A stretch of 32,000 bases of DNA, taken from the NCBI RefSeq assembly GCF_019457615.1, contig NZ_CP080414.1:3632237-3664236 (forward strand). The letters run 5' to 3'. The DNA comes from Shewanella zhangzhouensis. Its GTDB lineage: Bacteria > Pseudomonadota > Gammaproteobacteria > Enterobacterales > Shewanellaceae. Below, in pieces: positions 6,351-23,540 of the stretch (its first letter is position 1; every line of letters begins with the position of its first letter). Made by a program: the position numbers and the translations under genes. The notes below the pieces were generated by a model that saw nothing but the letters and a program-made list of their open reading frames with translations, did no database searches and was not told the origin of the DNA.

Positions 6351-7244
6351 ATGCAAAGCGGTTTTTACTTGTTGGCAGCCCTGTCGGCCATTCTCATGGG
6401 TACCATTGGCATCATTGCCCGGTTTGGCGAGCTGGATGCGGCCATGCTCACCTTTTACCGGCTCGGGCTTGGCGCCCTCATTCTGATGCTGTTTTTACTG
6501 TTTCGTCGTGAAACCGCCAGGCTCTGGGTAAAGCCCCATTGGGGCACAGTCGCAGGTGGGGTGCTGCTGGCAACCTTTATTCTGTGCTTTCTCAAAGCCA
6601 TAGAAACCATTCCCATGTCCCTCGCCATCATGCTGGTATACCTTGCCCCTGCGGTGGCGGCCATTGGCGCGCATTTCCTGTTTTCGGAGCGCTTGGGCGC
6701 TGCGGCTTTTAGCCTGATTCTGCTGGCCTTTTTTGGCTTTGCCATGCTGCAGGAATTCAAGTTGGATATGGCTGGCGCCGAGGCCATCGGCATGAGCTAC
6801 GCCCTGGGCTGTTTGCTGGCCTACACCGCCTTTATCCTTATCAATAAAAAAATTCCGCCCGCCAGCGACCCCTACGCCAAAACCTGGGTGCAACTGGCGG
6901 TGGGCGCCCTGGTGACCCTGCCCATGGTGTGGGGCGACCCTTTGCCCAACGCCAGTGAATGGTTCTGGTTGATGATTGCCGCGGTCTTTCCCGGCTTTTT
7001 AGCCATTCTCTTTGCGGTAAAAGCCATTACCGCACTGCCCGCCAAGATGTTCGGTACCCTGGCCTACCTCGAGCCCCTGATGGTGGTATTAACCGGTTAT
7101 CTGCTGTTTAACGAGCCCATGTCAGCCCTCAAATGGGGAGGCTGTGCCCTTATCCTGCTGTCAGGCATCGCCCAGGTGCAACTGGCAAATGCCGCCAACG
7201 CCCGCGCTCAGGCTGGCAATGGCAGTCCCCTTAAGGTAAGTTAA
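6351..7244 (+). CDS. EamA/DMT-family transporter
   Basis: About 10 predicted TM helices in two halves, typical of DMT. The start is placed at the internal ATG (MQSGFYLLAALSAILMG) because the 22-aa extension from 6285 is non-hydrophobic and Cys/Pro-rich. Confidence 0.8.
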   Translation: MQSGFYLLAALSAILMGTIGIIARFGELDAAMLTFYRLGLGALILMLFLLFRRETARLWVKPHWGTVAGGVLLATFILCFLKAIETIPMSLAIMLVYLAPAVAAIGAHFLFSERLGAAAFSLILLAFFGFAMLQEFKLDMAGAEAIGMSYALGCLLAYTAFILINKKIPPASDPYAKTWVQLAVGALVTLPMVWGDPLPNASEWFWLMIAAVFPGFLAILFAVKAITALPAKMFGTLAYLEPLMVVLTGYLLFNEPMSALKWGGCALILLSGIAQVQLANAANARAQAGNGSPLKVS

Positions 7245-7290
7245 GCGCCTAAAAATAAGCCGCATTGCGGTAACTTGAAGGAAGTCTCAC

Positions 7291-9918
7291 GTGAAGTTCT
7301 TAAGCCAAGCCTGGGTGGCCGTTGCCGCTGTCACCCTGGTGTCCTGCGCCTCCACCGACAAAACCCATCCACTGGAGCGGGATACAACGCCGTATATCAG
7401 CGCCGAACAGGCAGCAAATCGCAGCCAACGTGTCAGTAACGTGCATTATGAGCTGGACTTCAAACTCAATGGCAGTGCCGAATTCAGTGCCACCAGTAAA
7501 GTGCGTTTTCAGCTCAGCGATACCCTGTCACCGCTGACACTGGATTTGAACAAGGCCCGCATTACCGAGCTGTTGATTAACGGCGCCAAGGTATACCCCA
7601 ACTACAATGGCAGCTACCTGACCTTAAACCCCAGGCTGCTGGTGAGCGGCGAAAACCAGCTGCAGGTAAGCTTTGTCCGCCCCCACAGCACCAATGGCGA
7701 AGGCCTGCACCGCTTTGAAGACCCGGTCGATGGCCGTGTCTATCTTTACTCCCATTTTGAACCCGCCGCCGCCCAGCAAATGTTTGCGGTGTTCGACCAG
7801 CCGGATCTCAAGGCCAGCTACAAGGTGAAGGTAACTGCCCCCGCCGACTGGCAGGTAGTGACCACCACGCGGGAGAGCAGGATCAATGTTGAAGGCAATA
7901 TGCGGGTGTGGGACTTCCCCGAAACCCCGCTGCTGAGCCCCTATAACTTCTCGCTCCATGCCGGCCCCTATCAGGTATGGGAGAGCGGCGAAGCGCGCTA
8001 CCCCATGCGCCTCTTCGCCCGCCAGTCCATTGCCGACAAGGTCACACCGCAAGATTGGTTCCGCTACACAGCCCTGGGCCTCGAGTACTTTGAGCAATAT
8101 TTTGGCATTCCCTATCCCTTTAAAAAGTACGATCAGCTGCTGGTGCCCGACTTCCTCTACGGCGCCATGGAAAACGCCGCCGCCATTACCTTCTCCGAGT
8201 CGGCTTTTGTCTCCAGTGGTGAGATGAGCCTAGCCCAGAAACAGTCGCTGGCGGGAGTCATCATGCACGAGATGGCTCATCAGTGGTTTGGCGATCTGGT
8301 CACCATGAAGTGGTGGAACGGCCTGTGGCTGAACGAGAGTTTTGCCTCCCTGATGGGCACCATGGCGCTGGCGAAAATCCCTGAGTTTTCCCATGCCTGG
8401 CAAAGCTTTTATGCCGGAGGCAAACAGCGGGCCTACACCCTCGACAGCCTGGTAACCACCCACCCCATCGAGGTGCCCGTGCCCACATCGGGCAATGCCT
8501 TCGACAATATCGATGCCATCACCTACCAAAAAGGGGCCGCCAGCCTGCGTCAGCTGAGCATACTGCTGAGCGAAGAGCCTTTCAGGCGCGGCGTATCCGC
8601 TTACCTCAAGCAGTACAGCTACCGCAACGCCACCCTGGATGACTTTATCGGCAGCCTGGCACAGGCCGCTGGCCGGGATTTAACCCAGTGGACCCGGGAT
8701 TGGTTCTACCAACCCGGGGTAAACAGCATCGAAGCCGAGTTCAGCTGTGACGGCGAGCAAATCAGCCACTTCGCCCTGCGCCAGAGAGCACCGGCCGAAT
8801 ACCCGGTACTGAGGGAGCAAAAGGTGCAGGTGGCACTGTTTGATGCCGACCGCCACGGGCTGCACCGCGACCGGGTGGTAGAAGTTATCTTCAAGGGAGA
8901 GCGCACCGAGGTGCCCGCCCTTATCGGTCGCCAGTGCCCCAAACTGGTGTACCCCAACTATCAGGACTGGGGCTACGTGAAGGTAAACCTGGATCCCCGC
9001 TCCTTTGAGACCGCCCGCAGCCAGCTGTCCCGCACCGAAGACCCCCTGCTCAGGGCCATGCTGTGGCAAAGCCTGTGGGACAGCGTGACCGATGGCAAAC
9101 TGCCGCTGCAGGACTTTTTGGCAACGGCACTGGTCAACGCCCCCATGGAAAAGGATCTGCAGCTGAGCGCCCAGATCATCGACAAGCTACAAGCCAGCGC
9201 CTTCTACCTGCAAAGCGCCAACAAAGGCAGGGGCAGCTTTGCCGACAAGGGCCTGCGCGCCCTGTCGCAAATGAGCCTGCGCCGCGCCATGGAAAGCCGG
9301 GGCGACAAAGAGCTGCAGGGCCGTTGGTTTGATGCCTATATCAGCCTGGCCTACGGCGGCGAAGCCATTGATCATTTGAATGATTTGCTCGATGGTGCCA
9401 GCAAGGTGCAGGGGCTGGAAATAGATCAGGACAGACGCTGGGACATCATAGCCCGCTTGAATCGCCTCGATGCCCTCGGCGCCGAGCGCCGGGTGCGTGA
9501 GGAGCAGATCCGGGATAACAGCGACAGCGGCCAGAAATCCGCTATTCGCGCCCGGGTACAACGCCCCGATGGCAGCATCAAGCGCCAGTGGCTGAGTAAA
9601 ATCGCCGCCGGCAGCGAGCCCTTCCCCAAGCTGAGGGTAGCCATGGGGAACCTGTACCAGCCTGAGCAGCGCCTGCTTGCCAATGCCAGCAGCGACGAGC
9701 GCCTCGCCATGCTGCCGGACCTGGACGCCAAGGGACCCGTGTTTGCCCGCTCGGCCGCCGCCCTCATCCCCGGCGATTGCAGCCAGCAGGGGGTGGATGC
9801 CCTGAGCCGTTACATCGACAGCAAGCCTGCCCTCTCCAGCGGTATGCACAGGGCGCTGTTGGAAGCACGGCAGTTGCAGCAGCGCTGCGTGAAGGTGCTC
9901 TCGGCGCTGCCCAACTAA
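7291..9918 (+). CDS. pepN: M1-family aminopeptidase N, predicted lipoprotein
   Basis: 875 aa with the GAMEN exopeptidase motif and the zinc site HEMAHQWFGD...WLNESFA. GTG start with GAAGGAAG upstream. The lipobox is TLVSC. Confidence 0.9.
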   Translation: MKFLSQAWVAVAAVTLVSCASTDKTHPLERDTTPYISAEQAANRSQRVSNVHYELDFKLNGSAEFSATSKVRFQLSDTLSPLTLDLNKARITELLINGAKVYPNYNGSYLTLNPRLLVSGENQLQVSFVRPHSTNGEGLHRFEDPVDGRVYLYSHFEPAAAQQMFAVFDQPDLKASYKVKVTAPADWQVVTTTRESRINVEGNMRVWDFPETPLLSPYNFSLHAGPYQVWESGEARYPMRLFARQSIADKVTPQDWFRYTALGLEYFEQYFGIPYPFKKYDQLLVPDFLYGAMENAAAITFSESAFVSSGEMSLAQKQSLAGVIMHEMAHQWFGDLVTMKWWNGLWLNESFASLMGTMALAKIPEFSHAWQSFYAGGKQRAYTLDSLVTTHPIEVPVPTSGNAFDNIDAITYQKGAASLRQLSILLSEEPFRRGVSAYLKQYSYRNATLDDFIGSLAQAAGRDLTQWTRDWFYQPGVNSIEAEFSCDGEQISHFALRQRAPAEYPVLREQKVQVALFDADRHGLHRDRVVEVIFKGERTEVPALIGRQCPKLVYPNYQDWGYVKVNLDPRSFETARSQLSRTEDPLLRAMLWQSLWDSVTDGKLPLQDFLATALVNAPMEKDLQLSAQIIDKLQASAFYLQSANKGRGSFADKGLRALSQMSLRRAMESRGDKELQGRWFDAYISLAYGGEAIDHLNDLLDGASKVQGLEIDQDRRWDIIARLNRLDALGAERRVREEQIRDNSDSGQKSAIRARVQRPDGSIKRQWLSKIAAGSEPFPKLRVAMGNLYQPEQRLLANASSDERLAMLPDLDAKGPVFARSAAALIPGDCSQQGVDALSRYIDSKPALSSGMHRALLEARQLQQRCVKVLSALPN

Positions 9919-10146: not shown

Positions 10147-11421
10147 ATGCTCCGTAAAGCCTACCCTTTGCTCTGCCTGTTGCCTCTGCTGGCACTGAGT
10201 GCCTGCAATGATAACGACAGCCCACAAACCGAAACTGAAGTCACCCCACCTGCCGCCACCAGGGTACCCGCTCAGGTGGGCGTACGCCCGGCGTACCTGA
10301 TTTCACAAATGGCCGAAGGTGAGCTCAAATCGGCGCTGGCTCAGTGCAAAGACATGCCGTTTTACCGCAGCGACTTTTCCATCGGCCACCGGGGCGCCGC
10401 CATGCAGTTCCCAGAACACACCCGCGAGTCATATCAGGCCGCCATCGATTCGGGCGCCGGGGTACTGGAGTGTGACGTGACCTTCACCGCCGACAAGGCG
10501 CTGGTTTGCCGCCACTCCCAGTGCGATCTGCACACCACCACCAATATTCTCGCCATCCCCGAACTTGCCGCCAAATGCAGCGAGCCATTCAGCCCCTTTG
10601 ATGCCGCCACCGGCACCCCTGCCTCGGCCAAGTGCTGTACCAGCGACATCAGCCTCGAAGAGTTTATGAGCCTCAAGGGCAAGATGGACGGTGCCAACTC
10701 CAGGGCCACCACGGTGGAAGCCTATCTGGCCGGTACCCCGGGCTGGCGTACGGATCTTTATGCTGCCACCGGCACCCTGATGACCCACGCCCAATCCATT
10801 GAGATGTTCAAGGCCGCCGGCGTTAAAATGACCCCTGAGCTCAAGTCCCCCGCCGTCACCATGCCCTTCGATGGCATGAGTCAGCAGGAATACGCCGACA
10901 AACTGGTGGCCGAGTATCAGGCCGCCGGTGTAATGGCCGACCGGGTTTATCCCCAGTCCTTTAATCTGGACGATGTAAAACACTGGATTGCCACGGCGCC
11001 GGAGTTTGGCCAGCAGGCCGTGTATCTGGATGACAGGGACGAAACCCTGCCCGGCTTCGACCCGATGAACCCTGCCACCTGGCAGCCTGATATGGCCAGC
11101 CTCAAGGCCGATGGTGTGGAGGTAGTGGCGCCGCCTCTATGGATGCTGGTGACGCTGGATAACGACGGCAAGATAGTGCCATCCGAATATGCCAAGGCCG
11201 CCAAAGCCGCCGGGCTTAAGATAATCACCTGGACACTGGAGCGCTCTGGCCACCTCACCAACGGCGGCGGCTGGTACTATCAAAGCATTACCGATGCCAC
11301 CACCAACGAAGGGGTCACCTACGAGCTGTTGGACGTACTCGCCAGGGACGTGGGCGTGATAGGGGTATTCTCCGACTGGCCAGCTACCGTCACCTACTAC
11401 GCCAACTGCAAGGGGCTGTAA
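10147..11421 (+). CDS. glycerophosphodiester phosphodiesterase (GDPD) family lipoprotein
   Basis: 424 aa with lipobox LALSAC. The GDPD signature is [46 protein letters not shown]. Confidence 0.85.
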
Positions 11422-11463
11422 TTGGCGATGCCAACGCCCTTCCGGAGATTGCAGATACAAAAA

Positions 11464-11490
11464 GGCCGTGTCTTAGACACGGCCATTTTC
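11464..11490 (+). terminator. intrinsic terminator after the GDPD gene
   Basis: GGCCGTGTC-tta-GACACGGCC (9-bp stem) followed by ATTTTCACTTTT. Confidence 0.7.
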
Positions 11491-11762
11491 ACTTTTAACT
11501 GCCTGTCAGCCATTGAACTGTTCATCTCACCGTGTTTTGCATTCGGCTGAATAACCTGCTCAATTTCACCCAACATCCCCTTCCGCCGAGATGGATTTCC
11601 AGACCATAAAAAGGTAACTGGTACACCTTGGTTAAACGCTACTCTTCTTCAGCAAACCGATTTTTGGATTCACGTTTCCAGTGGCCCCATACCACTCTTG
11701 CCTTCAAACATAAAAAGCCAATAAAATCAATATGAAGCCATAAAACATTGACAAGGAAAAAG

Positions 11763-13118
11763 TTAATGAACGACCTTCATTTTCACTTCTTCTTCGCCCT
11801 TTTCCCCTAACCTGGTCGACAGCCTGTCGCCATTGTCTGAAAGAGTAAAATAAACAGGTTCGGCGCCGACCTGGTCATACACAAAACGGCCATCGCCTTC
11901 GTATCGCAGCGCCTGGGTATAACCATCGGGAAACTGATTGGCGAGCTTGCCATCGAGGTTAACCAGGGTCACCCCGTAGGGATCGTCAGGGATGGCCTGA
12001 TACAGACCCACATAGCGCGCCAGCTCTTCTGCCGCGACAGGCAGATCAGTCAGGGTTTGATTAAAGTAGCTTTTCAGCATCTGTTGATAGGTGTCATGAA
12101 AGTTATCATTTGAGCCATTGGATGCTAAAACCAGCGTCATCTTTTCCTGAGGGAAATAGGCCGCTATCGCGTTATATGCGTCAAAAGTCCCACCGTGCCC
12201 AAATCCCTGCTTGTCAAAAAACTCAATGGGTTTAATACCCAAACCAAAACCATTTTGGGTCTGCTTCATGGTATCAACCAATGGCAAAGGAATAATCTCA
12301 CCGGAAAACAAGGCATGATAAAAAATCGCAACCTCGGTGGGTGTCGCCTTTATGGAACCCGCCCCCAGACCAACAGAGAGATGGGATGCAGGAAACATTA
12401 ACCACTGGCCATTCTCAAAGGTGTACGAATGTTGAGTTTGATGGCTGTCGCGCACATGTACCGTTTGAGTCAGGTTTAACGGCGTTGTTATCTTTTCACT
12501 GAGTATCTCACCAAAGCTTTTTTGGTATACCTTTTCCAGGATGAGCGCCAGCAGGTAATAGTTGGAGTTGCTGTACTCCGCTTTGGTGCCTGGCTCAAAA
12601 TCGCTGCCCAACGCCAGAATTCGATTGAGCATACTCTCACTGCTTTGATTTTCTGTCCGATAGTCAAAAAATCCTTTTCCTTTTTTGGTGTAGTTGCCAA
12701 TGCCACTGCTGTGCTGAAGCAGATTTTTGATGCTGATTAGGTGTCCATTTTCAAGGGTCGGAAAAAATGCCTCGAGCGTTTGTTCCAGAGTCAGCTTTTG
12801 CTCATCAACCGCCTTTAGCACCAGGGCAGCTGTGTAGGTTTTTGACACTGAACCAATTAAGTAAGCTGATTGTGTGGTCGATTGTTCATTCTTGCTTATG
12901 TCATCGAAGCCCGAGCTATCTGAAAATATCACCTTACCTGACTGCATCAGCACAACACTGCCCATAAAGTCAGATTGCGAGCGAATATCATCAAATGCCC
13001 GGTGCAGCCTCTCCTGTCTGGACTGAATATCGTCAATTTGCGTGGTATCTGTGTCTTTTTTGCCACAAGACATCAACACAGCTGCACTGCACAGTACGGC
13101 AAGTAAAACTCTAGTCAT
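11763..13118 (-). CDS. beta-lactamase/transpeptidase-fold serine hydrolase, lipoprotein (AT-rich island)
   Basis: 451 aa with lipobox VLMSC. It carries S-x-x-K (GSVSKT), Y-x-N (YSNSNY) and an HGG box (FGHGGT). AAGGA lies 8 nt upstream of the ATG. GC content is visibly lower than in flanking core genes. Confidence 0.8.
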   Translation of the reverse strand: MTRVLLAVLCSAAVLMSCGKKDTDTTQIDDIQSRQERLHRAFDDIRSQSDFMGSVVLMQSGKVIFSDSSGFDDISKNEQSTTQSAYLIGSVSKTYTAALVLKAVDEQKLTLEQTLEAFFPTLENGHLISIKNLLQHSSGIGNYTKKGKGFFDYRTENQSSESMLNRILALGSDFEPGTKAEYSNSNYYLLALILEKVYQKSFGEILSEKITTPLNLTQTVHVRDSHQTQHSYTFENGQWLMFPASHLSVGLGAGSIKATPTEVAIFYHALFSGEIIPLPLVDTMKQTQNGFGLGIKPIEFFDKQGFGHGGTFDAYNAIAAYFPQEKMTLVLASNGSNDNFHDTYQQMLKSYFNQTLTDLPVAAEELARYVGLYQAIPDDPYGVTLVNLDGKLANQFPDGYTQALRYEGDGRFVYDQVGAEPVYFTLSDNGDRLSTRLGEKGEEEVKMKVVH

Positions 13119-13202
13119 CAGTCACGTCCTTGTTTTAATGCACAAGCTGAGGCTTTCACAGGGATAATACCAACCACTCCGTTTTTCAGTTGCTGGTTAT
13201 TG

Positions 13203-13922
13203 TTAGGCATTTAGTTCTACAACCTCAAAACATGCATCGCCACGATGATGTCCTGTATGCGCTTGAAATAACTTACCCTTAACTTTTGCATTTTTAAGCA
13301 CAATATTTCTGTGATCATCATAAAAACATGGACTAACTACTAATTGTAGCTTTTTGACATTATCGATTCTAAATGTATTACCATGCACGAAACCAGAAGC
13401 TAGTAATGATATTGGTTTGGGAAGCACCAACATCCAGTATGTCTCTAGAGAATCTTTTTCGAAGGATTTATAGTTGGGAGGACCAGGAAATGCCTCTCGC
13501 CAAACAAAACCTGTCAGCTCAATTTCCTGTCCCTCGTAAACCTCATCAACTTCATCTCCCATCTCCTTCTGAAGCCTCTGCGCCTCTAAAGCGAATGATT
13601 TCACTGCGTCATACCAACGCTCCCTATGCATCCTAAGTTCTGATTCTGAATACTTTGTCCCCTTGGGGTGTTTAGGATTGTAATGCCCTACGTCAGCATG
13701 ACAATTGAAACAAAGCGGAATGCAATTATGCAAATCAGAACTTCCGCCTTTCGACTCTTCAACAATATGGTGAAGCTCTATTTTCGTTCCGCAAAAGCCA
13801 TGACATATGCAACAGCTTCTGCCGCACAAAACTAAGACTTCGTCTTTTACTGATCGTGGCCACATATCTATTTTTTTCCTAACGCACCCAACCGGGGCCG
13901 AGCATAGCGAGATCCCGCGCAC
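13203..13922 (-). CDS. HNH endonuclease domain fused to a C-terminal GPPNY...HTGHH domain (DUF4431-like by recollection)
   Basis: HNH core: CCIC...ELHHIVE...HNCIPLCFNCH. The C-terminal half contains LTGFVWREAFPGPPNYKSF and GKLFQAHTGHHRGD. The start is ambiguous between GTG at 13922 and ATG at 13865 (AGGA 11 nt upstream). Confidence 0.75.
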   Translation of the reverse strand: MRGISLCSAPVGCVRKKIDMWPRSVKDEVLVLCGRSCCICHGFCGTKIELHHIVEESKGGSSDLHNCIPLCFNCHADVGHYNPKHPKGTKYSESELRMHRERWYDAVKSFALEAQRLQKEMGDEVDEVYEGQEIELTGFVWREAFPGPPNYKSFEKDSLETYWMLVLPKPISLLASGFVHGNTFRIDNVKKLQLVVSPCFYDDHRNIVLKNAKVKGKLFQAHTGHHRGDACFEVVELNA

Positions 13923-13931
13923 GCAGTGCGC
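13917..13931 (-). other. short GC hairpin between the 222-aa gene and the HNH gene
   Basis: GCGCAC-gca-GTGCGC (6-bp stem, 3-nt loop) inside a locally GC-rich patch (13881-13931) of an otherwise AT-rich island. No U-tract follows. Confidence 0.4.
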
Positions 13932-13955
13932 ATTTCTAATTGGACTTGTTATAAA

Positions 13956-14624
13956 TCACTTTACAACCCTCATGTAGGGTGGCAATCGAATCTTTCCGAC
14001 TTTCTCAACTTGCTCCCCAAGAAATTCACTTCTGGCACTATCAAGAATCTGCTCAAGCTTATCTAAGTAATATTCACATAATTCTTCGATGGGTTTGGAT
14101 TTTAGCTCATCATCCTCAGGAACTGGCAGTTCAGTAAAGTGTTGCTGTACATCGGCCATGCTAGTTGGAATATCGACATAATAATTCTCTGTTGAACCAT
14201 CAGGTAACTCTACAATCCAGCCACTACCACCAAGCTGGTCACCAATGAAGAAGCTAGAAGCTCCCGGTGGTGGCGGTCCCAACTTATCCATATCACCCTG
14301 ATTGATATTGATTGTCGCCGATGTTGAAACGGGTAGCTTTCCTTGCTTCAAAATCTCATTGCGCAATGTGACGAAGTATTTCATTACAACGTCAGACTTC
14401 ATTTGCTCCTGTATGGGGCCATACCATCGTTCAAAGGTATCAGAGCCAACAGGTGTCTTTAAATTTTGAATAACAAAAGTCACAGAGCGGCCAAATACAA
14501 TAAGATTCCTTAATCCCGAGTACCGACGACGTCTACCGCATGCAGTGAGGTCGTCAAAACCAAACTTAGCTGTCTGAAAGGTATCTTCAGCTTTCTGAAT
14601 AATTGCCTTAACCTCTGAATTCAA
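13956..14624 (-). CDS. hypothetical protein, no recognisable motif (middle gene of the island cassette)
   Basis: 222-aa ORF with a TTG start preceded by a strong SD (AAGGAGAGttgtaTTG). It has no TM segment or signal peptide and is acidic at the C-terminal end. It contains PPPP and GGSG linker-like stretches. Confidence 0.7.
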   Translation of the reverse strand: MNSEVKAIIQKAEDTFQTAKFGFDDLTACGRRRRYSGLRNLIVFGRSVTFVIQNLKTPVGSDTFERWYGPIQEQMKSDVVMKYFVTLRNEILKQGKLPVSTSATININQGDMDKLGPPPPGASSFFIGDQLGGSGWIVELPDGSTENYYVDIPTSMADVQQHFTELPVPEDDELKSKPIEELCEYYLDKLEQILDSARSEFLGEQVEKVGKIRLPPYMRVVK

Positions 14625-14761
14625 TACAACTCTCCTTGTGATTTATAACGCCCATGTAACCGATAGTTTTTGAGGAGAAGTTTTGTGAAAAATAGAGCGG
14701 AATGCACAAAAGTGCGGAGCAAAAGCTGTCCGGTTGACATGTTTGTTAGGCTATTGAAGGA

Positions 14762-14836
14762 CCCTACTAGGCCCAGTCCTCGCAGAGGACTGGGCCGACA
14801 GCACCTCGCACCCTCATAGATTGGGAGGGCGTAGGG
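14762..14836 (-). other. about 75-nt GC-rich nested-stem element in the intergenic gap between the Ntn-like gene and the 222-aa gene
   Basis: A perfect 12-bp hairpin GGCCCAGTCCTC-gca-GAGGACTGGGCC (14770-14796) and a second hairpin CCCTC...GAGGG (14811-14829) are enclosed by CCCTAC (14762-67) and GTAGGG (14831-36). No U-tract follows on either strand. Confidence 0.5.
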
Positions 14837-14843
14837 AGTTGCT

Positions 14844-15659
14844 CTATTTGCAACGAAACGGTGGCTGGACTTGAGCATCAGGCTCTCTTTGTTTCGTATG
14901 CGGATTAGTTATTTCGAAGTTACCATTAAACCACTGCAGGCCGAGAGGAGCAATATCTCTATCTATCAATTGCCCTGAGATATACCTTTGCCCCTCAATA
15001 ACAACCCCACAATGAGAGCCTCCAGTGTTAGGCTTGCGAATAACAGAGACGATTTGTGGAATTGGGCCAACAGTGTAATTTTTACTTTGACTAATAGTTT
15101 GATAAAAGGAATGAAAAACGTCACGACTGGTTGATTTGTTAGGATTTTCGATTATTTGGCGCTTTTTATATTGGATTTCAAATTCGTTTCTCCCACTACC
15201 AGCAACAACTATGGGGCCTGACACACCAGGAAAATTTAATTTCGTTTTAGTTGTTTTATTAAAATTAGAATCAATACGAAAGCATTCAAAGTCGCCAGCT
15301 GAACTCACTGTCGATTTTCCGCATATTACAACGGTAAAAGCTCCGGTTGACAGCTTAGCTGGGTATTGCTTGTAATTTCTTACAATAAGGCGGATGAATA
15401 TATCTACTAAGTCTTCAAGACTCGTACCCTTGTATTCAGGTATCGCCTCAATCACTGCTATCGCTTGTGAGATGAGCATTTGACTGGAAAGTGAATCTCC
15501 ACAATAACCTAATATTGCTGGAAATTGTCGTAGCGCAAAGGTTTTATTTGCATTATCAAAATAGTCCTGCTCGCCCCAAGAAACTCTACTATCGGTAGCT
15601 ATATATACCGAAGCGGGGCTTCTAGAATCGATACCAGTCCAAGCTACAAGTAATGTCAT
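14844..15659 (-). CDS. proteasome beta-subunit/HslV-like N-terminal-nucleophile (T1-type) peptidase homologue with C-terminal extension
   Basis: 271 aa starting MTLLVAW, with Thr directly after the initiator Met. ATDSRVS...ANKTF gives Asp and Lys 16 residues apart, matching D17/K33 of proteasome beta subunits. GYCGDSLSSQ parallels AGxxGDAQ, and VVAGSGRNEF parallels the GSG motif. All motif matches were made by eye. Confidence 0.7.
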   Translation of the reverse strand: MTLLVAWTGIDSRSPASVYIATDSRVSWGEQDYFDNANKTFALRQFPAILGYCGDSLSSQMLISQAIAVIEAIPEYKGTSLEDLVDIFIRLIVRNYKQYPAKLSTGAFTVVICGKSTVSSAGDFECFRIDSNFNKTTKTKLNFPGVSGPIVVAGSGRNEFEIQYKKRQIIENPNKSTSRDVFHSFYQTISQSKNYTVGPIPQIVSVIRKPNTGGSHCGVVIEGQRYISGQLIDRDIAPLGLQWFNGNFEITNPHTKQREPDAQVQPPFRCK

Positions 15660-15868
15660 GTATTTGAATGCCTAAAATTTGTATAGTGTGCTGGCTCGTT
15701 TATCACCTCAGACCAGTGAAAAACGTGCTGGTGAATGTTCAATGGACTTAATCACTTAGCTGATATCGTCCAGATAACTTACCAGTGCAAAGCGTGCCTG
15801 CACGGTTTCTCGCCTGTTATCTGCCCCGTCGATTTCGCAAGCACCTATTTTTAAATGGCAAACACTCA

Positions 15869-16126
15869 TCACTGAGCAGCAAAGCGTACCTGATGGCAGA
15901 CTGCGGCATACTCACAAGGGCAAAGCCCGGCTAACTGACAGGGGCAGCGAAGCGCCTTTCTACTGATGGAATAAACCCTAATTGGGGGATACAAGCGGTG
16001 AAGTGGATTCCAGGCAATGCCTTTGAGCATGGCTACCGCATGGGCTGGAGTGAGATACTGCGTCCCTGAGAAGTGTTTTTGATCCATCAAATCAGCATCT
16101 TGGCATAGGTTTATCAGCCGGGGCAA
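15869..16126 (-). CDS. possible small Cys-rich protein at the island edge (uncertain)
   Basis: 85-aa ORF (TTG start, internal ATG at MDQKHF) ending in RCPCQLAGLCPCEYAAVC. GC is core-like and I recognise no family. It could be a gene remnant. Confidence 0.3.
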   Translation of the reverse strand: MPRLINLCQDADLMDQKHFSGTQYLTPAHAVAMLKGIAWNPLHRLYPPIRVYSISRKALRCPCQLAGLCPCEYAAVCHQVRFAAQ

Positions 16127-16155
16127 GCGCGTTAACTGAATTCGCCTTAAGCCAC

Positions 16156-16198
16156 AAAAAAAAGCCGTGCCTGCTGATTAGCAGTAGCACGGCTTTTT
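16156..16198 (-). terminator. strong bidirectional-looking terminator downstream of the phosphoribosyltransferase gene
   Basis: AAAAAAAA-GCCGTGCCTGCT-gatt-AGCAGtaGCACGGC-TTTTT. The run of As on the plus strand supplies the U-tract for the minus-strand transcript. Confidence 0.75.
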
Positions 16199-16287
16199 AC
16201 AAATCGCGAAAAAGCACAGAACTTAGTTCGCGGGCTTAAGTAGCAGGCTCACATCACGGGCTTATGCAACAAGCTTATGCATCAGGC

Positions 16288-16854
16288 TTAGATAAACAGC
16301 TCGGCGATGTTTTTCAGGTCGCTCTTGCCGTTAGCAATCTCATCCGGTGTCAGGCCCGAGACTTCGTGGGGGAACACCAGCCAGTCTTCAGATGAGTGGA
16401 TGTAGTAATCCGGCTTTAAGGGCACGGCGGTGTTTTTGGGCTTGTAGTATGGGCAGGCGATGCGGATGTCGCGGGGCATGTTGAGGCGCATCAACTGAGA
16501 CAGTTTTTCTTTCAGGGCATGGATGCTGCGGCCTGAGTCGAATACGTCGTCCACAATCAGCAGGCCGTCGTCGGCGTTGCAGTTTTCGATGATGTAATGC
16601 AGGCCGTGGACCTTGATTTCCTTGCTCTGCTTGTCGGTACCAATGCCGTAATAAGAAGAGGTACGCACGGCGATATGGTCGGTATCGACCTTTTTGAAAT
16701 CAAAGTATTCCTGCACCGCAATCCCTATGGGTGCACCGCCACGCCAGATCCCCACAATAAACTGCGGACGAAAGCCGCTTTCATACACCTGGGCTGCCAG
16801 GCGAAATGAGTCTTCCAACAGCTGCTGTGCCGTAATGTAATGTTTGTCTGACAT
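16288..16854 (-). CDS. type I purine phosphoribosyltransferase family protein (Gpt/Hpt-like)
   Basis: 188 aa with the PRPP-binding motif LLIVDDVFDSGRS and the N-terminal layout FIVGIWRGGAPIG, as in Gpt-type enzymes. GGGGA lies 7 nt upstream of the ATG. Confidence 0.8.
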   Translation of the reverse strand: MSDKHYITAQQLLEDSFRLAAQVYESGFRPQFIVGIWRGGAPIGIAVQEYFDFKKVDTDHIAVRTSSYYGIGTDKQSKEIKVHGLHYIIENCNADDGLLIVDDVFDSGRSIHALKEKLSQLMRLNMPRDIRIACPYYKPKNTAVPLKPDYYIHSSEDWLVFPHEVSGLTPDEIANGKSDLKNIAELFI

Positions 16855-16894
16855 TGAAGCGTCCCCATCATCCTATTGCTGTTTTTGGTAATTC

Positions 16895-16934
16895 GCGGAT
16901 GAGGCCCAAACCCGGTATCCGCCATGATTTGGGC
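16895..16934 (-). promoter_or_regulatory. candidate structured 5' leader (two interleaved helices) upstream of the phosphoribosyltransferase gene
   Basis: GCGGAT (16895-900) pairs with ATCCGC (16917-922). GCCCAAA (16904-910) pairs with TTTGGGC (16928-934). The helices interleave, so they form either a pseudoknot or mutually exclusive hairpins. A TAAAAT -10-like box (rc of 16939-44) lies just upstream on the minus strand. Confidence 0.3.
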
Positions 16935-17008
16935 GCGCATTTTACACAAATTTTTGCCCCGTGACTGCTGCAAGCATAACAAGCCGGAGAATTTCCTCCA
17001 CTGAGCAT

Positions 17009-22448: not shown

Positions 22449-23177
22449 TCAGGCGGGACGCGGCAGGCGTCCTTCGCGAAAAAATGCTTCCACTTCATAG
22501 TATCGCGGCATATTCCCCCGGCCGCGTTCGGTAAAAGCGAGTCTGGCAGGCTCCAGCTGACAAATCCAGTAGCTCTGATCCAAAGGTGCGGACGCCATCA
22601 CACCCGGATCAGCCACCGCCAGGTTAACCCCTCCCGGTTCACGGGCCGAATAGCTGCGAATAAGCTGGCAGTCACGCTCAAGCAATTGCTGCCCCAGCGC
22701 CTGGGTAAAGCGGTAATCTTCACCGTGGGTCAGCTGTCGTTGCAGGGTATCATCAGCAATTCGGGTGAGGTCGGCGCAGCGCTTTGCACTGAGCAATACC
22801 CTGAACATCATGTGCTCCGAGTGCAGCACCCCCTGATAAGGCACAGCCATGTCCTGCAAGAAGACAAAGCGGTAATAGGCCACTTCGGTCAGACAGGTTT
22901 GCACCGACTCACTGCCATAAAAAAAGCTTGGCATCAGGCGGGTGCCAAAACGCGAGCCGTGCCTTAAGGGCGGATAACGAAAAGGGGTTTTCAGCAGATA
23001 GTGCAAATGGGCTGTGCCCTCCCGGTAAGGGGGTTTGGCACCATCCAGCAGGCTTTCCAGCAGCATTTGCTCGTCAAAATTATCCACCAGGCTCAGGGTA
23101 GCCGCCTCTTCCTGAGACTCCACCAACCGGTAGCAGCTGCCCTCATAGGGCACTTCGGGGATTGAAAGTAAGTCCAT
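22449..23177 (-). CDS. RES-domain toxin (RES-Xre / MbcT-ParT-type family)
   Basis: 242 aa. GSRFGT (Arg), CLTEVAYYRF (Glu) and a downstream Ser arrangement fit the RES domain. It directly abuts the antitoxin gene (TAAATG). Confidence 0.8.
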   Translation of the reverse strand: MDLLSIPEVPYEGSCYRLVESQEEAATLSLVDNFDEQMLLESLLDGAKPPYREGTAHLHYLLKTPFRYPPLRHGSRFGTRLMPSFFYGSESVQTCLTEVAYYRFVFLQDMAVPYQGVLHSEHMMFRVLLSAKRCADLTRIADDTLQRQLTHGEDYRFTQALGQQLLERDCQLIRSYSAREPGGVNLAVADPGVMASAPLDQSYWICQLEPARLAFTERGRGNMPRYYEVEAFFREGRLPRPA

Positions 23178-23540
23178 TTACACCTTGCCACGCATGGCAT
23201 CGAGGTATTGATTCACACTGACCAGGCCCACCACAGACTTGACCAGCTCCCGGGGTATGCCCCCAAGTGCATGGTTGGGACTGTTGAGCCAGTGGCGCAT
23301 AAAGTCCTGCTGCCCACCGGCCAGGGCATACAGCGAGCGGTACAAACGCACCAGCTGCAACTGCAACTCCCCTTGTTTTGACTCGGGTTTAAAGCCATTG
23401 GCAGCATTGCGGCTCAGGGTACTGGGGTTGACCCCTATGATATGGCTGGCTTCGGCATTGGTCAGTTCCAGCGCCTGACAGGCATTGGTAAAGGCCTTGA
23501 ATAAGACCCCGGATGCTGTGGGTTTGGCTATGGCAGACAT
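23178..23540 (-). CDS. Xre/MbcA/ParS-type antitoxin (DUF2384 C-terminal domain)
   Basis: 120 aa with an N-terminal HTH-like segment LTNAEASHIIGVNPSTLSR. The C-terminal segment WLNSPNHALGGIPRELV..GLVSVNQYLDAM is typical of DUF2384. Confidence 0.8.
   Translation of the reverse strand: MSAIAKPTASGVLFKAFTNACQALELTNAEASHIIGVNPSTLSRNAANGFKPESKQGELQLQLVRLYRSLYALAGGQQDFMRHWLNSPNHALGGIPRELVKSVVGLVSVNQYLDAMRGKV

Follow-up and report, generated by a model that had tools for sequence, protein, structure and literature searches.

The window, by which we mean the whole 32-kb stretch of DNA that was analysed, carries a low-GC island in which one gene encodes a protein resembling proteasome beta subunits and HslV. 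The gene is followed by a structured RNA element and by an attC-type recombination site, and the features are located as follows:

11500..16300 (borders approximate), minus-strand genes: low-GC island of four co-oriented genes, read as a cassette array (GC profile, ORFs)
14649..15675, minus strand: single-gene integron-type cassette, the mobile unit, from TTAGGC (15675-15670) to the G of R' (14649) (blastn against L090)
14844..15659, minus strand: gene for the proteasome-beta/HslV-like Ntn hydrolase, 271 aa (ORF, homologs, AF2, Foldseek)
15654..15656, minus strand: Thr2 codon, predicted N-terminal nucleophile (conservation, start of strand S1, alignment with HslV Thr1)
15591..15593, minus strand: Asp23 codon, D17 equivalent within the D-S-R motif (invariant in 67 sequences, aligned with HslV D17)
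15543..15545, minus strand: Lys39 codon, K33 equivalent (invariant, aligned with HslV K33, directly before strand E40-43)
14761..14842, minus strand: structured RNA element, 82 nt (MFE, covariance models, covariation)
14643..14751, minus strand: attC-type site (sequence and fold, read by eye and with ViennaRNA)

The hydrolase ORF runs from MTLLVAW to PPFRCK on the minus strand and ends with a TAG stop at 14844-14846. No in-frame start lies upstream of its ATG, and the plus-strand translation of 14844-15659 is riddled with stops. The original prediction had described a protein with threonine directly after the initiator methionine and no propeptide, which agrees with the MT start and the lack of any in-frame start further upstream. 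The motifs it quoted are all present, namely ATDSRVS (D23), ANKTF (K39), LGYCGD (G51...G54-D55) and AGSGRNEF (G154-S155-G156), and K39 lies exactly 16 residues past D23 as had been stated. The C-terminal extension of about 90 aa that was also claimed proved too long: Foldseek alignments span 213–231 columns, the final core strands finish near residue 227, and only about 45–65 aa lie beyond the proteasome-like core. This addition is conserved and contains the invariant residues W243, N245, F248, E249, Q263, Q265 and P266. The first hairpin of the family is 5 residues longer than that of HslV. Family members are mildly basic (median pI 8.6), and no recognisable RNA-binding domain was found in the hydrolase.

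Sequence searches yielded 66 homologs of the hydrolase and, in a library of 1.84 billion proteins, 1065 clusters at 50% identity that span at least 10 phyla, all with lengths of about 270 aa. Protein identity drops to about 30% across phyla. In the homolog alignments D23, S24, R25, K39, G54 and G154 are invariant, while M1, T2, G51, Y52, C53, D55 and G156 are at least 90% conserved; M1 and T2 show no variation in alignment A1 and reach the 90% level in A2. The quoted motifs are accordingly no chance resemblances. Pfam (PF00227 included), NCBIfam, PHROG and PADLOC models gave no match to the hydrolase at E ≤ 1, and nothing relevant was returned by phmmer or by the family profile against PDB sequences. 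Profile alignment with hhalign, first to one E. coli HslV and then to a 20-sequence HslV profile, placed T2 on T1, D23 on D17, K39 on K33 and G51 on G45. The alignment is not significant (P = 0.019), and the HslV profile is shallow because the search for HslV homologs gave only sequences at least 86% identical. A phage origin of the family was considered and rejected on account of the blank tblastn result in phage genomes, 50,697 records having given no match when queried with the window protein, nor with a homolog from Nocardia.

Structural comparison was carried out on an AF2 model of the hydrolase (pLDDT 91, pTM 0.91). Foldseek returned 501 matches in the PDB at E ≤ 0.001, and the best 50 of these are all proteasome subunits, nearly all of them beta. 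The best matches have E values of about 1e-7, a probability of 1.00 and a target-normalised TM-score of about 0.65. Matches in BFVD include phage proteasome-like proteins and an HslV. The AF2 model and the Foldseek matches agree on a four-layer alpha-beta-beta-alpha Ntn fold, and the model reproduces the order S1–S5, H1, H2, S6–S9, H3, H4, S10–S11. The GxxGD motif G51-Y-C-G54-D55, equivalent to the Gly47 oxyanion hole, lies at the end of strand E48-54, and G154-(S/T)-G156, equivalent to the Gly-Ser129-Gly loop, at the end of strand E148-154. We take D-S-R at positions 17–19, GxxGD and the GSG loop to be as in catalytic beta subunits (beta5, Thermoplasma beta). No obvious equivalents of Asp166 and Ser169 were seen in the alignment or the model; the candidates are T177-S178-R179 at the start of H4 and G198, P201 and Q202 after H4, all of which are conserved. 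The specificity of methionine aminopeptidase is such that an initiator methionine is removed before threonine.

The proteasome-beta/HslV-type fold that had been predicted, with its D17/K33 register, GxxGD oxyanion-hole motif and GSG loop, is thereby borne out on the structural side, where the Foldseek comparison with the PDB is decisive and Thr, Asp and Lys align with the catalytic residues. It found no backing in profile similarity (no PF00227 match at E ≤ 1, no PDB profile match, hhalign P of about 0.02). As similarity to PF00227, HslV and PDB profiles is not significant, homology rests on the predicted structure and membership is assigned at the superfamily (fold) level only. The ORF is taken to encode a genuine representative of the proteasome-beta/HslV (Ntn, Thr-1) superfamily, probably an active one.

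The GC content of the island is 42–47%, versus 55–60% outside it. The attC-type site consists of R'' GCCTAAC (14751-14745), L'' CATGT(C)AACCG, L' CGGTTACATG and R' GTTATAA (14649-14643). Its L stem has an extrahelical base (C), and its bottom strand folds better (-33.1 vs -20.2 kcal/mol). A screen of the island for RYYYAAC...GTTRRRY was blank because R' reads GTTATAA, and the site was found by reading. A single ORF lies between the TTRRRY core and attC, as judged by eye and by folding. Blastn against L090, where the encoded protein is 91% identical, matched only positions 14747-15675 (88.8% over 929 bp). GTTAGGC or GTTGGGC cores are present upstream of the ATG in L001, L005 and L008, and an integron integrase stands upstream and divergent in L005/L006 (TIGR02249, 4e-58, truncated) and in L029. 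No IntI homolog was found in the 32-kb window by tblastn, from which we conclude that the array here either lacks an integrase or has decayed. As read from the sequence, gene, RNA and attC are one integron-type cassette in a low-GC array. Most family members in other phyla are without integron features.

The single ORF, the TTRRRY core with attC, the co-oriented low-GC arrays and the IntI genes of L005/L029 are shared with toxin–antitoxin (TA) and defence cassettes of integrons. The present cassette differs from these in the extra conserved structured element between ORF and attC, and the window's array in having no integrase within 32 kb. The extra element is not the attC of the cassette, since a canonical attC directly follows it. 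The integron-associated DUF1874 motif was likewise rejected as its identity, being of a different pattern and occurring in consecutive intergenic regions (PMC5737381). The original prediction had spoken of a cassette shared with a nuclease. This did not hold: the 91%-identical copy resembles the window no further than the limits of the single-gene cassette, and neither the HNH gene nor any other gene of the island stands beside the homolog in any of 94 loci. The HNH nuclease was accordingly rejected as a conserved cassette partner and belongs to an unrelated neighbouring cassette.

The RNA element begins 2 nt past the stop codon of the hydrolase. Its layout from 5' to 3' is a GCAACU tail, P1, the P2 hairpin, the invariant junction GCGAGGUGCUGUCGG, the P3 hairpin, CCUAGU, the 3' strand of P1 and a U. 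Across homologs it is a three-way junction of about 80–115 nt with a 15-nt junction that is nearly invariant across phyla. The window copy has an MFE of -43.4 kcal/mol (z -4.2) and scores 70 bits (E = 4e-14) with covariance model (CM) R1 and 76 bits (E = 2e-11) with CM R2. A MAFFT alignment made without structural information has 93.1% of its cells paired, compared with 42–63% when the partners are slid. The same alignment holds 70 double-change cells versus at most 16, and the observed value was reached by none of 500 shuffles. An alignment of 63 element sequences showed 96.1% pairing and 349 double-change cells, so that pairing overall amounts to 93–96% versus 40–63% in the controls. G.U outnumbers A.C at 107:11, and this settles on which strand the element functions. 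No relevant match among the 4227 families of Rfam 15 was found for positions 11000–17000 of the window at E ≤ 1, or for a 181-nt slice (L014 10780-10960) even at E ≤ 10. Pseudoknot pairing of the GCAACU tail with the junction was rejected, as the tail variants in L011, L038 and L048 are, by eye, without compensating change.

To evaluate the linkage of the element to the gene, 85 sources totalling 1.4 Mb were searched on both strands with the CMs. The first CM gave 47 matches at E < 1e-6, one per locus, each just downstream of the gene's stop. With the iterated CM the element adjoins the gene in 66 of the 85 sources, and the sole match elsewhere is weak (E = 0.035). Roughly 16 sources had no match at E ≤ 0.1, four having weak matches at the expected position. 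In about 16 distant loci, mostly of Actinomycetota, the element lies upstream of the gene and is usually divergent from it. The reverse test led to the same pairing: the gene ends 3–24 nt before the motif in 50 of 64 loci selected by motif, and the hydrolase family accompanies 50 of the 55 genuine motif matches. Four complete copies of the element (L135, L144, L155 and L110), and a weaker one (L164), follow a SIR2-like gene instead, and in one case the element is retained beside a decayed gene remnant. No domain common to the Ntn and SIR2-like partners was detected, and a common mode of RNA binding is therefore not evident. Three matches to the motif pattern in viral contigs were discarded as chance occurrences inside coding sequence.

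In its covariation and its two-way genetic linkage the element is on a par with accepted RNA families. On comparative evidence from these loci, the hydrolase and its adjoining conserved RNA element travel together across many bacterial phyla. No description of the pairing was found in Rfam 15, Pfam, NCBIfam, PADLOC or PHROGs, nor in the open-access literature, preprints included.

Protein partners were sought by using blastp to cluster every ORF that lies no more than 6 kb from the gene in 84 loci, by a relaxed all-against-all comparison of upstream genes and by a hydrophobicity screen for small membrane proteins. Neighbour clustering revealed no conserved protein partner besides integrases, which were found in 8 of 80 loci, and no AAA+ family is conserved among the neighbours in these 80 loci. 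The small membrane proteins seen in L001 and L005 are not conserved on the hydrophobicity screen. E. coli HslU gave no tblastn match in the 32-kb window. The ATP-grasp and transglutaminase-like Pfam families of the Anbu operon were not found in the window either, and are absent among the most frequent immediate-neighbour families listed. The original prediction that no HslU, AAA+, ATP-grasp, transglutaminase or alpha-subunit gene lies nearby is thus true of the whole 32-kb window. Its description of the gene as an orphan has to be given up, as a structured-RNA partner is strictly linked to it.

A proteasome homolog without a partner, which had been put forward as unusual, is not a novelty, since a census by Fuchs, Alva and Lupas in 2021 already lists 22 uncharacterised families, e.g. 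GPH, DAH, RPC and PMI-4, without AAA+ partners (PMC8665760). Representatives of the census families include WP_152342571.1, WP_085249540.1 and HDY66466.1; some homologs carry C-terminal domains of unknown fold, and no informative genomic context and no RNA were reported (PMC8665760). The hydrolase has in common with these families, and with BPH and Anbu, the active-site residues, the lack of a propeptide and the lack of an AAA+ partner (PMC8665760). Compared by descriptions, distribution and architecture only, it fits none of the 22 cleanly. By description RPC and PPH lack H2, which the hydrolase has, and PMI-4 has large insertions that the hydrolase is without; DAH, PPH and AAH occur in phages, whereas the present family had no match in the phage records.

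With HslV (ClpQ, MEROPS T1B) the hydrolase shares the Ntn fold, the MT start and the D17/K33/G45 register. It differs in having no HslU partner and no significant sequence-profile similarity, in being about 95 aa longer, with the 5-residue hairpin insertion and the conserved C-terminal addition, and in its RNA partner. The family is moreover sporadic and mobile, whereas hslVU is a housekeeping operon. Beta subunits of the 20S proteasome (archaeal, actinobacterial and eukaryotic) are the best structural matches; in contrast to these, the hydrolase has no propeptide, alpha subunit or PF00227 match, and no D166/S169 equivalents were identified. Connectase (DUF2121) is reported to be a monomeric archaeal proteasome homolog that ligates proteins, an example that homologs of this kind are not necessarily bulk proteases; like the hydrolase it has a proteasome-like core, family-specific additions and no ATPase (PMC7980362; PMC8665760). 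It lacks H1/H2, has a helical insertion between S3 and S4 and is confined to methanogens (PMC8665760). The hydrolase family, on the other hand, is bacterial, keeps H1/H2 and has no Pfam match.

In type III TA systems (ToxIN, CptIN, TenpIN) an effector is coupled to an adjacent structured non-coding RNA in a compact and mobile unit found among defence genes. There a tandem-repeat RNA precedes the toxin, an endoribonuclease that processes the RNA. The structured RNA element adjacent to, and co-inherited with, the hydrolase gene resembles this arrangement by analogy only. It differs in being present as one copy, usually after the gene, and in accompanying an Ntn or SIR2-like fold; given the single, usually downstream copy and the Ntn fold, we compare the system with type III TA but do not class it there.

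On balance we lean towards an ATP-independent Thr hydrolase that, together with a dedicated RNA, would make up a self-contained module of the TA or abortive-infection kind. Removal of the initiator methionine would expose Thr as residue 1, and Asp23, Lys39, Gly51 and the GSG loop would complete the catalytic apparatus, with no propeptide, ATPase or other protein partner involved. The RNA would be produced together with the enzyme and would bind or control it, serving as the controlling or sensing part of the module. The Thr hydrolase would then be the effector that damages the cell or the invader once control fails. The likeliest role, we infer, is that of an RNA-controlled toxic or defence effector. 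A broader formulation is put forward more tentatively, as a possibility: an ancient RNA and a Thr-1 hydrolase, occasionally replaced by a SIR2-like protein, may form a two-part module that is carried on integron cassettes and defence islands in most phyla, with the RNA as antitoxin, sensor or guide.

An alternative that differs from the toxic or defence effector solely in what the enzyme acts on is a protein that is no general peptidase but a Connectase-like sequence-specific ligase or transpeptidase, or an amidohydrolase with a non-protein substrate, for which the RNA would be substrate, cofactor or guide and not inhibitor. Connectase is an example of a monomeric proteasome homolog that has extra elements and works as a ligase (PMC7980362; PMC8665760), and the hydrolase does carry extra elements, i.e. 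the conserved C-terminal addition and the longer first hairpin. The lack of identified D166/S169 equivalents is also in keeping with such an activity, as is an RNA junction conserved as strictly as in catalytic or ligand-binding RNAs. The absence of similarity to Connectase (DUF2121) and of any Pfam match at E ≤ 1, the retention of helices H1 and H2, unlike in Connectase, and the absence of a candidate substrate gene conserved nearby nevertheless make this alternative unlikely.

The proteasome-like fold with its catalytic residues and the lack of a nearby ATPase gene would also suit a protein that stands alone, as the original prediction had it, in the form of a self-compartmentalising ring peptidase of the HslV/BPH type. 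AAA+ partners are likewise lacking in BPH and in several families of the census of 22 (PMC8665760). The element, found at the 3' end of the gene in most loci, would then be only a stabiliser of the transcript end or a terminator. Such a role would not hold the 15-nt junction near-invariant across phyla between which only about 30% of the protein sequence is identical, and the element is without a U-tract. In distant homologs it lies upstream and usually on the other strand, and therefore cannot be the 3' end of that gene; it is also kept beside the SIR2-like gene and beside the decayed gene remnant. We consider this explanation distinctly improbable.

It is very unlikely that the element acts as folded single-stranded DNA, for example as a recombination or mobility site, instead of as RNA. 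Gene and element do move as one unit, the setting is that of integron cassettes, where attC sites act as folded single-stranded DNA, and the cargo has been swapped to a SIR2-like gene; single-stranded DNA and RNA motifs are, besides, indistinguishable by comparative analysis (PMC5737381). Against this, a canonical attC directly adjoins the element in gammaproteobacterial copies, and conservation of the element extends to phyla and loci that show nothing of an integron. Recombinases co-occur with it only as the integrases of 8 of 80 loci, and essentially one protein family is accompanied (50 of 55 genuine matches) rather than diverse cargo. Strand-specific G.U pairs are abundant, though G.T pairs are also possible in DNA.

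Hardly any weight is attached to a cis-regulatory RNA physically unrelated to the protein (a riboswitch-like sensor, or a self-cleaving ribozyme acting on read-through cassette transcripts), although riboswitches and ribozymes typically have three-way junctions with invariant junction sequences and covarying stems, and a processing site at the cassette end is plausible as integron cassettes are co-transcribed. None of the 4227 Rfam families, which generally cover riboswitch and self-cleaving ribozyme classes, gives a match, even at E ≤ 10 on the 181-nt slice. Riboswitches are seldom found 3' of a gene or divergent from it, and a generic processing signal would not predict linkage to one protein family in either orientation and both inside and outside integrons.

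The two-part module of RNA and hydrolase, if true, would be of a previously unrecognised kind, a toxin or anti-phage system of a new class with a non-nuclease effector under RNA control, and would include the first RNA-regulated member of the proteasome superfamily. The hydrolase by itself is one more uncharacterised proteasome homolog. The RNA, which accompanies it from Proteobacteria to Actinomycetota, provides a functional clue that the census of proteasome homologs had not found in genomic context. If functional, the pairing would give an experimental handle on an orphan branch of the superfamily, would add a new structured RNA class and may define a new TA or anti-phage logic, with a protease or NADase-type effector under the control of an RNA. 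Being self-contained and only about 1 kb long, the module is easy to clone and test.

Immediate neighbours listed at the homolog loci, which may point to a defence setting, include AriA, mad3, retron and DRT reverse transcriptases and the Cap4 nuclease. Pycsar TIR, HamA, AbiGi, AbiEii-type ATPases and Schlafen were further neighbours observed, again at homolog loci.

The open reading frame of the original prediction was confirmed on the minus strand, and all of the motifs quoted for it were found in the translated protein; plus-strand translation of the same interval was interrupted by stops.

14844-15659, minus strand: target ORF, 271 aa, MTLLVAW start, PPFRCK end

D23 lies within ATDSRVS and K39, exactly 16 residues on, within ANKTF, and the further motifs LGYCGD and AGSGRNEF are present. 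At E<=1, Pfam, NCBIfam, PADLOC and PHROGs gave no match to the protein; PDB sequences, searched with the single sequence and with a family profile, likewise yielded no relevant relative. One search returned 66 homologs, and 1.84 billion representatives searched with a profile yielded 1065 clusters at 50% identity, 491 of them at E<=1e-30. Family members are nearly all ~270 aa long and are annotated as hypothetical throughout. D23, S24, R25, K39, G54 and G154 were invariant in a 67-sequence alignment, with M1, T2, G51, Y52, C53, D55 and G156 conserved in at least 90% of sequences.

An AlphaFold2 model built from this alignment (pLDDT 91, pTM 0.91) gave 501 Foldseek matches in the PDB at E<=0.001. 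The best 50 of these were all proteasome subunits, nearly all beta (probability 1.00, E ~1e-7, TM ~0.65 normalised to the target, 11-19% identity), and BFVD matches included phage proteasome-like proteins and an HslV. The closest structures are 20S beta subunits and HslV. The conserved residues of the model occupy positions of beta-subunit catalytic residues: Thr2 begins strand S1, Asp23 lies just after S2, Lys39 just before S4, G51...G54-D55 at the end of S5 ahead of helix H1, and G-S-G at the end of S9 ahead of H3. Alignment by hhalign with E. coli HslV (NC_000913) and with an HslV profile placed T2, D23, K39 and G51 on T1, D17, K33 and G45, the first hairpin of the target having 5 inserted residues. 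The hhalign score was non-significant (P ~0.02) and the homology claim therefore rests on the predicted fold and the conserved-residue pattern; as the family is not matched by the PF00227 profile, it is filed at the superfamily (fold) level only. The modelled proteasome-like fold and active-site assignment are considered highly probable, and the protein had been identified correctly as proteasome-beta/HslV-like. Its C-terminal extension, put at ~90 aa beforehand, comes to ~45-65 aa beyond the core, is modelled as well ordered, and carries conserved W243, N245, F248, E249, Q263, Q265 and P266.

The closest concept is that of the 22 uncharacterised proteasome homologs of Fuchs, Alva and Lupas 2021 (PMC8665760), for which those authors found neither genomic context nor a co-occurring AAA+ partner hinting at function (PMC8665760). 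Going by the published descriptions, the target family fits none of the 22 cleanly. RPC and PPH are without H2, whereas the target family has it; PMI-4 carries large insertions that the target family does not have; and DAH, PPH and AAH are found in phages, whereas the target family had zero matches in 50,697 phage genomes.

As predicted, the protein is without an ATPase or alpha partner, in that no HslU-like, AAA+, ATP-grasp, transglutaminase or alpha-subunit gene was found in the 32-kb window. Around target homologs, 80 loci were fetched from GTDB species genomes representing 10 phyla or more (Pseudomonadota, Bacteroidota, Actinomycetota, Planctomycetota, Verrucomicrobiota, Acidobacteriota, Nitrospirota, Bacillota, Cyanobacteriota, Deinococcota and others). 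Clustering of all ORFs within 6 kb at these loci gave no recurrent neighbour but integrases (8 loci), and the co-directional genes immediately upstream were mutually unrelated. Scanned with Pfam and PADLOC, the adjacent genes proved a varying mix of defence and mobile-element genes, tallied as a plain listing, among them integrases, resolvases, Schlafen/AlbA_2, Cap4 nuclease, Pycsar-type TIR, HamA, AbiGi, AbiEii-type ATPases, PARIS AriA (3 loci), mad3 (3 loci) and retron/DRT reverse transcriptases.

The target is contained in a low-GC island at ~11500-16300 (42-47% GC vs 55-60% in the flanks), together with three other genes co-oriented with it.

Features of the island around the target gene
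11763-13118, minus strand: beta-lactamase-fold hydrolase (PF00144, 1e-44)
13203-13922, minus strand: HNH+DUF4431 protein, 239 aa
13956-14624, minus strand: 222-aa protein, best match an unknown-function PHROG (E=0.009, unconvincing)
14751-14643, minus strand: attC, with R'' GCCTAAC, L'' CATGT(C)AACCG, L' CGGTTACATG and R' GTTATAA (14649-14643)
14761-14842, minus strand: structured RNA element, MFE -43.4 kcal/mol, z -4.2

The cassette with a nuclease that had been proposed did not hold up. The island neighbours have zero homologs in 94 target-family loci, and nucleotide similarity to L090, a locus encoding a 91% identical protein, is limited to 14747-15675, which points to a coincidence of adjoining cassettes as the reason for the HNH nuclease lying beside the target. 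The similarity block starts at a TTAGGC core (15675-15670), with GTTAGGC or GTTGGGC likewise placed in the homologous loci L001, L008 and L005, and terminates within GCCTAAC (14751-14745), which serves as R'' box in an attC with an extrahelical base, whose bottom strand is the more stable one. Integrases were located upstream of, and divergent from, the target homolog in two loci.

L005 (Zhongshania) 6508-7236, minus strand: integron integrase homolog (TIGR02249, E=4e-58)
L029 ~7115-7750, minus strand: IntI homolog

The Zhongshania integrase covers just positions 1-179 of the 315 of TIGR02249 and so is probably truncated and inactive. IntI was not found in the 32-kb window, so that its array is integrase-less or decayed. 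That the target gene is an integron-type cassette is considered very likely.

Several minor features of these arrays were recorded. The serine hydrolase at 11763-13118 is low in GC, distant from class C and D-aminopeptidase models, has a lipoprotein-like N-terminus (MTRVLLAVLCSAAVLMSCGKK) and is the island's last gene, followed by a hairpin and T-run at ~11440-11480. The next cassette(s), 13203-14624 (minus strand), hold the 222-aa gene, then 33 bp and the HNH+DUF4431 gene, whose HNH part has a weak likeness to IscB and type IV restriction HNH domains and whose stop codon is overlapped by an R''-like GCCTAAC box (13208-13202). The ~630 bp upstream of the target (15660-16287) are without a convincing ORF, the sole candidate being a TTG-start 85-aa ORF (15869-16126); GC climbs across them toward the flanking phosphoribosyltransferase gene (16288-16854), and they may be the decayed head of the array. 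The L005 array contains, among others, genes for AbiJ_NTD4, AraC-regulator, acetyltransferase and AAA_18 kinase-like products. Small predicted membrane proteins lie directly upstream of the target in two gammaproteobacterial loci, L001 (7422-7868, plus strand, 148 aa) and L005 (7518-7850, plus strand, 110 aa); they have ~3 hydrophobic helices, are mutually unrelated in sequence, are absent from the window and are probably separate cassettes. Directly downstream of the cassette in L001 is a REP-associated tyrosine transposase (9119-9844, plus strand; NF047646, 2e-19), and short direct repeats (GAACCAATGGGGTCAG-like) occur in a row beyond the attC. The gene after the target copy in L090 (3782-4579, plus strand) matches the NCBIfam 'LAPAL motif-containing putative phage structural protein' (4e-47), and small co-oriented ORFs without Pfam matches throughout this 6-kb contig give it the look of a cassette array.

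All close homologs carry a near-identical ~80-105-nt element between stop codon and attC. Of 84 loci, 43 have its core, GCGAGGTGCTGTCGG, 17-79 nt past the stop codon, some of them with proteins just 30-36% identical to the target. The element is a three-way junction in the order GCAACU 5' tail, P1, P2, junction, P3, CCUACU and P1 3' strand. P1 closes it and varies from CCCUGG/CUCAGGG to CCCUAC/GUAGGG, CCCCGA/UCGGGG, CCCCAA/UUGGGG etc.; the P2 hairpin varies in sequence and length, the junction after it is invariant and the P3 hairpin is variable. RNAalifold predicted these stems from a MAFFT seed, 16 of the 24 pairs showing compensatory changes, and pairing exceeded that of slid partners in both alignments. 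G.U pairs outnumber A.C pairs 107:11, giving 97.0% pairing on the GCAAC strand vs 90.2% on its complement, so that the functional strand is the one co-directional with the target gene in the window. The element has no match in Rfam 15, and no description of it was found in the literature searched.

Covariation of the element
MAFFT seed, 17 sequences, structure-naive: paired 93.1%, partners slid 42-63%; double-change cells 70 vs <=16 slid; shuffles attaining observed 0/500
Model-fitted alignment, 63 sequences: paired 96.1%, partners slid 40-62%; double-change cells 349 vs <=56 slid; shuffles attaining observed 0/500

Linkage to the gene was evaluated by covariance-model search of 85 sources (1.4 Mb, both strands). 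The first model gave 47 matches at E<1e-6, one per locus, beginning shortly after the stop of the gene, at 1-24 nt in most loci. The exception, L047 (11869-11947, plus strand; 61 bits), lies ~1.1 kb downstream of a truncated gene copy (query residues 1-237), the gap holding an opposite-strand ORF, and is the only strong match not immediately adjacent. With the iterated model, 66 of 85 sources had the element adjoining the gene, and a single match, weak (E=0.035), lay away from it; of the sources without a match, 3 end at a contig edge and 4 more show weak matches at the expected position. The original prediction, correct on the protein, fell short in calling it an orphan, given the linked RNA element, and was mistaken on the nuclease link. 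Among the most divergent homologs (Nocardia, Lentzea, Streptomyces, Kribbella, Arthrobacter, Curtobacterium, Solirubrobacterales, some Acidobacteriota, Novosphingobium, Buttiauxella and Dolichospermum) the motif is found 50-170 nt upstream of the gene, mostly on the opposite strand and on the gene's own strand in L065, L068 and L087. That linkage outlasts changes of position and orientation speaks for a functional partner in its own right and not simply a signal at the 3' end. A cis-regulatory RNA or ribozyme is considered an unlikely alternative.

The reverse test, in which metagenome and viral collections were scanned for the motif alone (GCAACTCC, 14-44 nt gap, core), selected 64 loci. The Ntn gene, i.e. 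the target homolog, ended 3-24 nt ahead of the motif in 50 of these; 7 were chance matches within high-GC coding sequence and 2 had too little contig. One (L119, 8690-8784, plus strand; 71 bits) has an intact element behind a decayed 30-codon remnant ending in ...RQFRC*, the family C-terminus, suggesting that the RNA outlived the gene or that the gene was disrupted recently. In the remaining 4, complete motifs (E ~1e-10) follow another gene by 4-21 nt. That the element is real and functionally tied to the gene is considered highly probable.

Elements following a SIR2-like gene
L135 1484-1582, plus strand
L144 10302-10400, plus strand
L155 302-401, minus strand
L110 409-508, plus strand; contig cut, only the gene's final 128 aa visible
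L164 3590-3687, plus strand; weak match

The SIR2-like protein (~353 aa) carries a CxxC zinc ribbon besides GAGFS and HG motifs; its matches are PADLOC Aga_SIR2 (4e-7) and Pfam SIR2_2 (8e-4, below gathering). The SIR2-like family has 1438 homologs; the element is confined to a subclade at least 80% identical, L164 included, weakly, and five members at 54-66% identity are without it. The element here is of the Bacteroidota type, as beside Ntn genes such as L066, and no common domain of the two proteins was detected by hhalign. The pairing is read as a rare effector swap beside an old RNA.

Removal of Met would uncover Thr1, and the enzyme would be an ATP-independent hydrolase. The element would work as RNA, binding or controlling the hydrolase, and the pair may form a toxin-antitoxin- or abortive-infection-like module in which the RNA would be the controlling or sensing part and the hydrolase would be the effector. 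This is suggested because the module is compact and mobile, because its neighbours are defence and mobile genes and it also occurs in integron arrays, a common home of addiction modules, and because the Ntn gene can give way to a SIR2-like enzyme, of a domain class known above all for defence effectors that deplete NAD. The mechanism is tentative and is given somewhat less than an even chance. Less likely alternatives are Connectase-like or RNA-directed chemistry of the enzyme and an ssDNA or mobility site in place of an RNA. An unpartnered ring peptidase would agree with the fold and the missing protein partner, and sits poorly with an RNA element tied to the gene.

The protein-RNA pairing appears undescribed in the databases and literature searched and is readily testable. 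It would work somewhat like a type III toxin-antitoxin system; identity with this type was rejected, the element being single copy and the protein not an RNase. Separately, a classic type II toxin-antitoxin pair, consisting of a RES-domain toxin (22452-23177, minus strand; PF08808, 1e-27) and an Xre/MbcA/ParS-type antitoxin (23181-23540, minus strand), is found in the normal-GC part of the window.
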